Source of the DNA: Acidobacteriota bacterium
Lineage (GTDB): Bacteria; Acidobacteriota; UBA890; WLXD01
Direction: 5' to 3'
DNA: 64,000 nt
NCBI GenBank assembly: GCA_963666055.2
Contig: CAXWPH010000014.1
Span: forward strand, 256,001-320,000
The notes under the pieces are model-generated. The model saw nothing but the letters and a program-made list of their open reading frames with translations. It had not been told where the DNA came from and made no database searches. Below, piece by piece: positions 17,303-54,313 of the stretch; the stretch's first letter is position 1; every line of letters starts with the position of its first letter. Made by a program: the position numbers and the translations under genes.

Positions 17303-17325
17303 GAGCCGTGAGGGTGCCGGCGTCG

Positions 17326-17605
17326 CTAGCAGGCCGTGGTGAAAGTGTGGTGGGTCTGGCGACAGGGTCTTGCGAAGTGCAGGCAAGGAGAAGAGGAGGA
17401 GGCGATGGTTACCGCATCGTTGACGAGGAACGACGCAGCATGCGCGCGCAACCCCCTGTCGCCCGAAGGGTTACGGCGAGTTGGGGCCATTTGCGGTGTT
17501 GGCCTTCCTGGACGATGGCCGGGGCATCGCCTGCGTCAGGCCGCCTTGCATCTGGCCCCAACTCGCCGTAACCAGACCCACCACACTTTCACCACGGCCT
17601 GCTAG
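17326..17605 (+). mobile_element. MITE-like element, copy 1 (280 bp including both CTAGs)
   Basis: 34-bp perfect inverted ends CTAGCAGGCCGTGGTGAAAGTGTGGTGGGTCTGG; near-identical copies at 39486 and 54035. Confidence 0.9.
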
Positions 17606-32516: not shown

Positions 32517-33311
32517 TAGCCGGAGCGATCCTTGCAGTCTTGATCGATCCTGCCGACTGAACCCCGTGCGGCGCTTGTCGGGAGCGTCGTCGAGTTGCAG
32601 CTAGCAGCGACCACCCGATATGGGGCTGCGCAACCGTCGACTGGTCGGATGCCATGGATCGCCCCAGCGTTCCGCCCGGGGCGCGCGCCATCATGGGCAA
32701 CATCAACTCCGCCGGGGTCGGCGCCAGTCCGGCTACGCTAGCTCTCTACGCGGTAGACAGTGCGACCCCAGAGGCTCTGAACAGGTCGGCGGTTGCCCAT
32801 GGGGTTATTGCCGGGGGCTTTATCGAGACTCAATACAACCCCCGAATACACAATACTTTCGGGGTAGGCACCCTGCTACCGGGTGCGTAAAACGCACCCT
32901 ATACGCACCCTGGGAATCACGCTGGGTGCGGCTACTGGAGCCCGCCGCATGACGGCCCTCAACGTGGCCACGCGGCGAGTAAGCTGCCGCGCATGAAGCT
33001 CACACCCGAAACCCAGATCGTCCACCTCAAGGGCATCTGGATCTCTACGTCGCTCGCCCTGCGGCAATGCAACATCCGCACGCTGCAGGACCTGCCGCTA
33101 ATCAACCTCGCTACCACACCGTCGGAGATCCACGAGCAGCAGTTGGCGATTCTGCTAGAGGCTGCTGAGGTGGCTGGGGTTGAGCACCGGGAGACGTAGC
33201 GCGGCAGCGCCGCCAGTGCTCGCGAGGCTCCCCTGAGCGCGCGCTACGGGTCCGTCGGCACGAGCCGCTTCAGCTCGTCGAACCGTGTGAGGACGACATG
33301 CATCCGATGAC

Positions 33312-33674
33312 TCAGAAGTTCATGAGCTTGTCGCTCTCTGCCGCAAGCTCAGCGTAGCGCTTCGGATCGATGAACTCGGCGTTCTTTCCCTCAAGATCGG
33401 CCTCGAAGACCTCACGGGCCTTCGCGCAACCCCCTCAGACGTAGATCGGCACACCGTTATCGACGGCAAACTGGAATAGCTCCTTGAGCGGCGGCATGCC
33501 GACGCCAACGAGGCTCTCCCGCAGCCCGTCCTTGAGGATCACCGGACTGTCAACGGCCAACACGATACCGACATCGTGCCCGGCTTCTTTGGCCCCTTTG
33601 GCGATGTGGAAGGGCAAGCTTGCACGGGTAGGATCATCGGCCCCGTGAGTACCCGTGATCAGGAACTTTGCCAT
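33312..33674 (-). CDS. DsrE/DsrF-like selenoprotein (Sec at in-frame UGA 33435-33437)
   Basis: MAKFLITGTHGADDPTRASLPF...VPIYV-UGA-GGCAKAREVFEADLEGKNAEFIDPKRYAELAAESDKLMNF*. The domain is complete only on read-through; UxxC motif; GGGGAGG RBS. Confidence 0.85.
33404..33424 (-). promoter_or_regulatory. Bacterial SECIS-like hairpin
   Basis: CGAAGGCC-CGUGA-GGUCUUCG; apical loop begins 18 nt after the UGA, with G at loop position 2. Confidence 0.65.
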
Positions 33675-33884
33675 AAGACACCTCCCCCTCTTCTGCCCCT
33701 ACGTACTAGGGCAACACCTCAAGCTGCTGGAGTAACGAGAGCATATCGAAGTAGCGACCGGCTTGGCTGCCGGCGATGTGCCCGTCAGAGACAGGCGCGG
33801 GTGGTGAGTCCTGGCCGCTGCCCCCGGCGAAATCGAGGATCTCATGCGGATCGACTTCGTTGCGAAGCTGAGGGAAATCGGGTG

Positions 33885-34061
33885 CTAGTGCAGCGTGGTG
33901 CTCATGGCGTACCGCCCCTCCTGGAACTCGCCGCACAGCGTGGTCACCAGCGGGTGGCTGATCGGCTGACCGCCGTCGTCCGGCTCGAGGTTTCGCTCGG
34001 CCACGTAGGTCGTGTGGTCAGCTCCGTCGACGAGCACGTGATACCACGGGCTGTCTTTCGG
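33885..34061 (-). pseudogene. hspQ: HspQ (YccV-like) C-terminal fragment
   Basis: PKDSPWYHVLVDGADHTTYVAERNLEPD...ISHPLV; N-terminal half absent. Confidence 0.75.
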
Positions 34062-34084
34062 CGATCCGCCCGCGCCGGAGGCCC

Positions 34085-35417
34085 CTATCTCGGCGTCGCC
34101 ACGTCTCCCGCCACCGGCTCCAGCCTCACGATCCTCGTCATCGGCTTTCCTTCGGGGCCCCTCGAGCGCCAGGTAGATGAAGCCGTCTGGACCCTGCCGC
34201 ACGTCCCGGATGCGCCCCAGAACACCTTCGAGCAGAGTCTCCTCGCTCACCGCCCTGTGCCCGTCGAACGAGATCCGGGCAAGCTGCTGACCCAACAGCC
34301 CGCCTACGAACACGCTGCCCTTCCACCACGGAAACTGCTCGCCCGAGTAGATCATCAAGCCCGACGCGCCGATGGACGGGATCCAGGCGAACCGTGGCGA
34401 CTCCATCCCCCGCCGTTGCGTTTCTGTCGTGAAGACCGTCCCGTCGTAGTGGATCCCGTGGGAAACCACCGGCCAGCCGTAGTTTTCCCCGCCGACGATG
34501 AGGTTCAGCTCGTCGCCTCCCCTGGGACCGTGCTCGTTCGACCAGACCTCCCCGGTCACCGGGTGGACGGCGAGCCCTTGCTGGTTCCGGTGCCCGTAGC
34601 TCCAAATCTCGGGGAGGACGTCGGCGCGCCCGACGAAGGGGTTGTCGGCGGGAACGCTGCCGTCCTCGTGAAGGCGGATGATCGTTCCCATGTGGTTCGT
34701 CAGGTCTTGTGCTGGATGGCCCGCCATGAAGTCGGGGGAGACCATCCGGTCGCCCACAGCGACGAACAGGTAACCGTCCGGGTCGAAGACCATTCGGCCT
34801 GCGAAGTGGTTGTTGTTGTCGCCCCAGGCGCTTGACTCGAAGATCTCCTCGACGTCGACCACGCGATACCCTTCCAGATCACCCGCCACCGGACCAGGCT
34901 CCAGGCGCCCCCGCACGACGGTGGTCGTCCCGCGGGAGCCGTCGGCGTTCGGCTTGCCGTAGCTTAGATAGAGTAGACGGTTCGTGGTGAAGTCCGGATG
35001 GGGAGCCACATCCATGAACCCTCCCTGTCCCCGCTGCCGATACACCTGGGGAAGCCCGGCGACCGGGTCGGGCTCGAGCACCCCGTCCCGGACGATCCTC
35101 AGGCGGCCGGGTCGCTCCGTCACGAGCATCTCGCCGCTCGGCAGCCAGGTCATGGACCACGGTTGGTCCAGCGCCTCCACGACGGTCACAACGCGGAAAT
35201 TGTGGCGCGCTGACTCGCGTATCTCGGGCGACTGCTTCTTTCCCGTCTGGCAGGTGATGGAGATGTCTCCCCAATCCACGGGAGGAACTAGGTCGTTTGC
35301 TGCCGTGTAGCCGTAGGTCCCCGAGACCCTGGCGTAGCCAGGGACTATCGCGGCGTCGGATACGATCGCCAGCGCCAGAATTACCAGCACGGAGGGTGCC
35401 GCGCCTGATCTCTTCAC
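34085..35417 (-). CDS. PQQ-dependent sugar dehydrogenase (YliI/GSDH family), frameshifted near its C-terminus
   Basis: LVTERPGRL, GQGGFMDV, WSYGHRNQQG, EHGPRGGDELN. The natural end MTRIVRLEPVAG...* lies in another frame after ~34155. Confidence 0.85.
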
Positions 35418-35481
35418 ATCGCCTCCCAGCAAGTGTTCGGGTTTCCATGGAGCGCGATCAGACGCACCCACTACCTCATCG

Positions 35482-39485: not shown

Positions 39486-39764
39486 CTAGCAGGCCGTGGT
39501 GAAAGTGTGGTGGGTCTGGCGACAGGGTCTTGCGAAGTGGAGGCAAGGAGAGAGGAGGAGGCGATGGTTACCCCATCGTTGACGAGGAACGACCTAGCAT
39601 ACGTGCGCAACCCCCTGTCGCCCGAAGGGTTACGGCGATTTGGGGCCATCTGCAGCGTTGGCCTTCCTCGACGATGGCTAGGGCATCGCCTGTGTCAGGC
39701 CGCCTTGCATCTGGCCCCAACTCGCCGTAACCAGACCCACCACACTTTCACCACGGCCTGCTAG
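39486..39764 (+). mobile_element. MITE-like element, copy 2 (279 bp)
   Basis: Same CTAG-bounded 34-bp inverted ends and internal sequence as copy 1. Confidence 0.9.
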
Positions 39765-54034: not shown

Positions 54035-54313
54035 CTAGCAGGCCGTGGTGAAAGTGTGGTGGGCCTGGTTACGGCGAGTTGGGGCCAGATGCAAGGCGGC
54101 CTGACACAGGCGATGCCCTAGCCATCGTCGAGAAAGGCCAACACCGCAGATGGCCCCAAATCGCCGTAACCCTTCGGGCGACAGGGGGTTGCGCGCCTAT
54201 GCTGCGTCGTTCCTCGTCAACGATGGGGGTTCCATCGCCTTCTCCTCTCTCCTTGCCTCCCCCTCGCAAGACCCTGTCGCCAGACCCACCACACTTTCAC
54301 CACGGCCTGCTAG
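54035..54313 (-). mobile_element. MITE-like element, copy 3 (279 bp, opposite orientation)
   Basis: Reverse complement of copies 1 and 2; one mismatch in the inverted end. Confidence 0.9.

Follow-up and report, generated by a model that had tools for sequence, protein, structure and literature searches.

A predicted DsrE-like UxxC selenoprotein from an Acidobacteriota genome and its relatives with one or two in-frame UGA codons

Introduction

DsrE-like selenoproteins with a UxxC motif are tabulated in several surveys (PMC1088965, PMC1794560, PMC2398784), the last of which has entries 'DsrE 1' and 'DsrE 2', and the table in PMC13188914 lists a DsrE-like family with PF02635, UxxC, and one selenocysteine (Sec), exemplified by WP_014524487.1. 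The same article constrains bacterial SECIS (bSECIS) elements to a loop of 3–9 nt, a stem of 4–16 bp, a G in loop position 1 or 2, a spacing of 16–37 nt, and an energy of −7.5 or lower. It also describes UxxU selenoproteins of the Prx-like, NF041115, and FmdB families. Group 4 NiFeSe hydrogenases likewise have UxxU, and one SECIS may serve both of their codons (PMC13582414); PMC5322559 is a further source on known systems. Among solved structures, 3mc3 is DsrE3A (SSO1125/Mcup_0681), in which the first Cys of Cys-X7-Cys is the DsrE active-site Cys (PMC4175335).

Here we analysed a gene within a 64,000-nt stretch of an Acidobacteriota genome (the window; coordinates are window positions unless a contig is named). 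A preliminary description had taken it for a selenoprotein hidden by an in-frame UGA and had stated, in agreement with PMC1088965 and PMC13188914, that DsrE-like selenoproteins are already known. Judged by its sequence, the gene is a fresh member of this catalogued UxxC class, and what appears new is found in its relatives: UxxU forms with two hairpins and a linkage to a methyltransferase. We consider it likely that the gene encodes a 120-aa DsrE fold whose UGA is decoded as Sec via SelABCD and a downstream hairpin, and whose U-G-G-C pair would serve an ArsM-like methyltransferase.

The read-through frame and its product

The gene occupies 33312–33674 of the minus strand, with a Shine-Dalgarno-like GGAGG (33681–33685, same strand) placing the ATG 6 nt downstream. 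From the ATG at 33674, the ORF called with translation table 11 stopped after 79 aa at the TGA at 33437–33435, and 40 more codons continued in frame (GGCAKAREV...DKLMNF) to a final TGA at 33314–33312, for a total of 120 aa. This is the extension that the preliminary description had read, with the strand unstated. The complete DsrE-like domain claimed for it was also recovered. The read-through product matched Pfam DsrE (PF02635) with 59.2 bits over model positions 2–116 of 116 (cut-off 22.7), compared with 26.6 bits over positions 2–76 for the truncated 79-aa product, so full domain coverage was obtained on read-through only. The protein (P0002) had no matches among NCBIfam models.

An AlphaFold2 model with Cys in place of Sec had a mean pLDDT of 93.5 and placed residue 80 at the end of a strand (77–80) that is followed by a helix (81–86). 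The best solved structure in Foldseek was 3mc3 (TM 0.78), followed by DsrEFH, YchN, and TusBCD, and 3mc3 also matched in sequence (E 6.8e-6, 28% identity), with its DsrE3A-type active-site Cys aligned to U80, the predicted Sec. Cys83, the predicted resolving residue of the U80-G-G-C83 motif, is encoded by the TGC at 33426–33428 (minus strand), a codon that is TGA in the UxxU relatives. We predict a DsrE-like selenoprotein gene from the frame, the Pfam match, the AlphaFold2 model, and Foldseek together.

Neither a sigma-70-like promoter nor a terminator was found at the window copy, and an Rfam scan returned a single match at chance level. One RNA run contained contigs of a relative ~94% alike across the gene; since contigs are no sign of transcription, these were left out as evidence.

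Genomic context and second copy

The gene sits in a block (33300–34063, minus strand) comprising the 3' half of hspQ, a spacer, and the dsrE-like gene, which the window has in common with another contig of the genome (C15:433089–434047). The second gene copy (C15:433101–433463) was one synonymous base apart and had an intact hspQ upstream. The upstream edge of the duplicated block in the window was the 3' half of hspQ/yccV (33885–34063, minus strand), and a glucose/sorbosone dehydrogenase ORF (33885–35471, minus strand) ended in frame with it. Because hspQ at C15 is intact and the half hspQ in the window is fused to the dehydrogenase, we take the copy in the window as probably derived. The join looks like a recent rearrangement rather than an evolved fusion. 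Two sequencing runs from different studies contained contigs for both branches at 34063, with a junction overlap of just 30 letters, one below the threshold of the bridging tool, and one of these runs may be the source sample.

Positions 33709–33804 were unmatched in the C15 block, which bears a ~280-nt repeat there. This dispersed repeat, which we take to be MITE-like, had many copies in the genome, including 17325–17605, 39486–39764, and 54035–54313 of the window and another that lies immediately before the gene copy on C15. A short genome-wide repeat with no assigned strand (33218–33296) lies immediately downstream of the window gene, and positions 32973–33296 held a 68-aa ORF plus short repeat that recurred elsewhere in the genome at 77–88% identity and had no Pfam or NCBIfam match.

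At a threshold of 1e-15, none of 10 genomes from the same taxonomic family matched the gene, and 8/401 genomes in a phylum sample did, this genome included, a distribution which suggests that the gene may have been gained horizontally.

Selenocysteine machinery and decoding of UGA

The preliminary description implied that this genome (G000; 5.73 Mb, 95.7% complete) has Sec machinery, and each component was found. Profile searches gave selA (533.6 bits), selB (367.5 bits), and selD (326.6 bits), each above cut-off, and selC was identified as a tRNA-Sec(UCA) with 68.2 bits, also above cut-off. The two selC calls are probably one gene, since both fell inside a single duplicate (8 kb, 99.9%; C6:1–8030, C13:58156–66188) located where a contig ends. 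This duplicate is among many near-identical blocks and probably represents assembly overlap. SelD was inside a 758-aa frame (C2:113002–115182, L011) with the Cys form at its active site and a long N-terminal extension that, read by eye, resembles an FAD oxidoreductase domain.

Two further genes had in-frame TGA codons with G-loop hairpins: a formate dehydrogenase (−10.1 kcal/mol, 19 nt after TGA) and an ArsM-like gene (−11.7 kcal/mol, 17 nt). The formate dehydrogenase alpha subunit with its Sec TGA (C3:76500–79500) was in two pieces meeting at model positions ~367–369, as a frameshift or a split gene. Among 36 genomes holding relatives of the window gene, mostly incomplete MAGs, selB was present in 30, selC in 32, and at least one of the two in 35.

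UGA might instead be decoded as Cys via the SECIS-dependent tRNA-ReC, or as Trp via a variant code. tRNA-ReC does translate UGA into Cys, and genomes that have UxxU hydrogenases are enriched for it (PMC13582414), but we regard such decoding as very unlikely here: selABCD was complete, tRNA-Sec was the sole UCA tRNA called by ARAGORN, and 926 long ORFs terminated with TGA, which makes it an ordinary stop codon in this genome. The tRNA-ReC option is weightier for the UxxU relatives than for the window gene. Pyrrolysine was also considered and rejected; the tRNA-Pyl called by ARAGORN (C5:65608–65685) has a loop that reads Arg(TCT) and a mismatched anticodon stem, and the genome had neither a PylS N-terminal match nor a C-terminal match above cut-off. 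For Sec, the standard bacterial model would very probably apply, in which SelB and Sec-tRNA would bind the G-loop hairpin and insert Sec80. Recognition of a SECIS by SelB can differ between species.

Residue 80 across relatives

We examined 119 loci, redundant loci counted, using scan patterns drawn wholly from sequence upstream of the UGA codon. A genome scan with a single query yielded none among 456 pattern matches, and an alignment query succeeded. Column 80 was covered by 116 loci and was TGA in 111 of them, with one locus each for TGC, TGT (a frame slip), CGC, AGA, and GGA; these counts overstate independence because the loci are related. The open frame continued 38–41 codons past the TGA in 107/111 loci, and the other four reached a contig end. 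Rows left out were L075, L151, and L155 (column 80 absent), duplicates, and rows close to contig ends. L049 (the frame slip) was also removed from the Arg80 tree and the second-hairpin counts, and L128 from the tree.

Database homologues, a set that includes the window's own cluster, terminated at column 80 in 114/119 cases. The window gene is a real gene annotated as a fragment in the same way, and the routine truncation stated in the preliminary description is what we observed. Members are common across uncultured phyla; in one of these the family occurred in 90/251 genomes, with an in-frame TGA in all 102 matches.

The UGA had also been said to fall where homologues carry the first Cys of a CxxC. 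This stands for distant homologues, as Cys forms (CGTC, CGAC, CGPC) and Ser forms were found at 30–40% identity, and does not extend to closer relatives, which nearly all have TGA. Distant relatives L243–L245 and L263 had the motif SGMS, with neither Cys nor Sec. Sec and Cys paralogues occurred together in two genomes (L025 and L034 in G037; L181 and L187 in G253). Sequences with Arg80 (L045, L110, P0004, P0005) formed one supported branch that retained Cys83. The pair for which DNA was seen had no hairpin, and the genome of L045 nonetheless has selB and selC. Going by these sequences, some close relatives appear to persist with neither Sec nor Cys at residue 80. The family places forms with one Sec, two Sec, Cys, Ser, or Arg on a single scaffold. 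The preliminary description had named a lack of selABC, or homologues with neither Cys nor UGA at this column, as evidence against it; selABC were present and homologues carried UGA or Cys, and its selenoprotein interpretation is supported.

The SECIS-like hairpin

The hairpin lies at 33404–33424 (minus strand) and has 8 pairs and the loop CGUGA (33416–33412), which begins 18 nt past the UGA, as had been described. According to our own script, rather than bSECISearch, it satisfied the bSECIS consensus, with a loop of 5, a stem of 8, G second, 18 nt of spacing, and a stem-loop energy of −10.4 kcal/mol. The same consensus was satisfied at 65/800 ordinary TGA stops of the genome. Equally strong G-loop hairpins occurred 16–37 nt downstream of 22/800 such stops and at 18–20 nt in 4/800, and z-scores for the window hairpin over four folded stretches were −0.28, 0.55, 1.52, and −1.34. 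By itself the window hairpin is not beyond chance; conservation across the family provides strong support for it.

Across 84 distinct gap-free rows, 81.2% of hairpin cells were paired vs 71.6 ± 0.9% when shuffled and 29–61% in slid registers. Two-sided changes numbered 82 vs 37.8 in the control in these rows, a comparison that is inflated by relatedness. A C-G pair closed the G-U/G-G loop in 77/84 rows; the window loop is without such a pair. The codon for Arg87, the source of the loop G-U/G, was CGT or CGG in 113/113 distinct UxxC rows vs 4/14 non-Sec rows. CGT and CGG together made up 37% of Arg codons upstream within the same genes. At held-out loci, the hairpin was found in 46/47 UxxC genes vs 1/10 non-Sec genes. 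It is this family covariation that upholds the SECIS fit proposed earlier.

Synonymous codon choice was constrained inside the hairpin across the family. This constraint, the conservation of the 40 downstream codons in more than 100 loci, and the occurrence of TAA or TAG at column 80 in 0/116 loci argue against a true stop that would leave a truncated protein or a pseudogene. Databases do give a product of 79 aa, and the window copy is in a rearranged, duplicated block with no sigma-70-like promoter found, so that expression of this copy stays unproven; even so, a true stop is hardly credible.

Relatives with two UGA codons

The motif was UGGU in 29/117 rows, and in the uncultured phylum noted above 27/102 matches had two TGAs, counted from the table. 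UxxU genes comprised L095, L152, L176, L178, L247–L252, and subsets of L050–L057, L111–L138, and L189–L204. In these genes the loop of hairpin 1 is only ~10 nt past UGA 2, outside the 16–37 nt model. A second hairpin (−7.5 kcal/mol or lower, 16–37 nt after codon 83, scored with our own script) was present in 35/37 distinct UxxU rows, all but L138 and L252, vs 4/113 UxxC rows. It was also present in 2/14 non-Sec rows, one of which (L150) retains UGA 2. Under our first criterion for this hairpin, 18–20 nt after UGA 2, only 7/13 held-out UxxU rows passed. The six misses were a separate group, of which five bear a different hairpin at 26–27 nt. A range of 16–30 nt was picked after seeing these misses, and the reported counts hence use the published range of 16–37 nt.

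Group 1 (Rokubacteria/Methylomirabilota and L095) had the second hairpin 19–20 nt after UGA 2, with bases shared with hairpin 1. Both hairpins were kept in its 21 rows, where cells were paired at rates of 99.2% and 97.0%. In one lineage of 3 rows, the shared base had changed together with both its partners. Codons in group 1 were TTG for 17/19 Leu and GAA for 16/17 Glu, vs 11% and 27% elsewhere in these genes. Folding predictions for the L053 RNA gave hairpin 1 at full length and hairpin 2 after removing 15 nt. Group 2 (6 rows) had another, non-overlapping hairpin 26–27 nt after UGA 2 in 5 rows, and its hairpin 1 was weak or absent. A single UxxU clade was rejected (p-AU 0.011) in a quick tree of 56 chosen rows with motif and hairpin codons masked, and a possible third UxxU origin in L095 had a p-AU of 0.416. 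The independent-pairs test gave 1 starred pair (3 on all branches), too few for significance.

Taken jointly, and with the chances for and against about balanced, we propose that the change from UxxC to UxxU requires a new SECIS for UGA 2 and has had at least two origins, that group 1 mRNA refolds between exclusive SECIS elements while group 2 uses a separate hairpin, that the products are of the diselenide type, and that one-Sec members pair with a Sec methyltransferase as its redox partners, the two selenoproteins forming a module so far undescribed. In group 1 the hairpins would be mutually exclusive, and the mRNA would refold from SECIS to SECIS while the ribosome advances three codons; in group 2 the separate second hairpin would have arisen as hairpin 1 weakened. 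Hairpin 2 alone could instead serve both UGAs, as it is within spacing range of each, and the few independent events and the two misses weigh against the two-SECIS proposal. It is also conceivable that tRNA-ReC inserts Cys at one of the two UGAs (PMC13582414). In the literature searched, we found no DsrE UxxU form, overlapping bacterial SECIS pair, or DsrE-ArsM linkage, and the main text of PMC12013277 contains neither DsrE nor UxxU.

UxxC and UxxU genes are matched natural constructs for comparing one SECIS with two, and they offer a predicted RNA switch. How two UGAs three codons apart are read bears on producing multi-Sec proteins in bacteria.

Gene neighborhood and possible role

Out of ten queries tested, the commonest neighbor in relatives was an ArsM-like methyltransferase gene with a TGA of its own (DLWTG-U-IAGAL). 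It was at most 600 nt away in 27/115 loci, and among loci flanked by 1 kb or more on each side it was adjacent in 20/47 UxxC loci vs 0/19 well-flanked UxxU loci. The neighbor was upstream, downstream, or divergent, across several tree branches. Its TGA was kept in all 28 matches listed, and among these the UxxG Sec motif of arsenite methyltransferase selenoproteins was present (G-U-IAG). The protein was nearest to Sec-containing ArsM models and scored below every ArsM cut-off (best 220 vs 510; NF008823 216.3 vs 263 for the L039 protein), so we name it ArsM-like only. The ArsM-like gene of this genome (C15:404598–403996), with its TGA and hairpin, adjoins neither dsrE-like copy and is ~29 kb from the C15 copy. 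No match to the ArsM-like gene at 1e-35 was found in 11/36 host genomes of relatives. Other neighbors in relatives included YeeE/YedE (7 loci), MFS, LysR, ArsR-rhodanese, MerR, and a chromate transporter.

Enzymes of the ArsM type depend on a reductant. From the gene neighborhood, we tentatively favor the DsrE-like selenoprotein as a redox or carrier partner of the ArsM-like Sec methyltransferase, ahead of a general sulfane-sulfur carrier and, after that, a peroxidase. By analogy with DsrE3A, Sec80 would be the nucleophile, which would either attack a disulfide or accept a group containing sulfane, selenium, or a metalloid; Cys83 would resolve it as a selenenylsulfide, and the assembly would probably be a homotrimer. 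The ArsM-like enzyme would be re-reduced or fed by the DsrE-like protein, in a route that may methylate and remove arsenic, selenium, or sulfur species. This linkage would provide a first testable function for the DsrE-like selenoprotein class, which has been listed since 2005.

A less probable role for the selenoprotein is that of a persulfide or thiosulfonate carrier like DsrE3A, independent of the methyltransferase. U80 aligns with the active-site Cys of SSO1125/3mc3, on which DsrE3A bears a thiosulfonate (PMC4175335). Neighbors consistent with a carrier were the YeeE/YedE transporters, ArsR-rhodanese fusions at L068 and L069, and a metallo-beta-lactamase-fold gene (Lactamase_B match) at L084 and L093. 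The latter is presumably a persulfide dioxygenase. However, TusA, Dsr, and Hdr genes were absent from the neighbors whose domains were scanned (57/144 called ORFs plus 25 cluster representatives), the motif is UxxC rather than Cys-X7-Cys, and the methyltransferase was the most frequent neighbor.

We consider a stand-alone peroxidase or disulfide reductase unlikely. The model puts UxxC at a predicted helix start, many truncated homologues are labelled 'predicted peroxiredoxin' by JGI, and neither genome copy has operon partners beside it. The JGI label is automatic, though, the fold is DsrE rather than thioredoxin, and the neighborhood recurs in relatives.

Comparison with known systems

The window gene resembles the published DsrE-like selenoproteins in PF02635, UxxC, and an in-frame UGA with a downstream SECIS-like hairpin, and the class is described as functionally uncharacterised. 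It may belong to DsrE 1, DsrE 2, or a third subfamily. The published tables give UxxC with one Sec only, and we found no mention of UxxU forms, the Arg80 branch, or the methyltransferase linkage in these sources.

DsrE3A was the best sequence and structure match, and its first Cys aligns with U80. It differs in having Cys-X7-Cys, no Sec, and a linkage to Hdr-like sulfur oxidation genes, whereas the window protein has only U80/C83, and dihydrolipoamide dehydrogenase, tusA, and hdr-like genes were found beside neither the window nor the C15 copy among the neighbors scanned. SaoD is also a DsrE-like protein, with CxxC or CxxCC, beside selenoproteins of organometal chemistry (bioRxiv 10.1101/2022.07.06.499078), and some relatives here carry UxxCC. 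SaoD is described there as never a selenoprotein and belongs to the SAO operon; the window gene has TGA at the first position and no NCBIfam match and does not qualify as SaoD. Lastly, the UxxU relatives have two UGAs three codons apart like known UxxU selenoproteins, and in contrast to the single SECIS suggested for hydrogenases (PMC13582414), their second UGA accompanies an extra hairpin in 35/37 rows.
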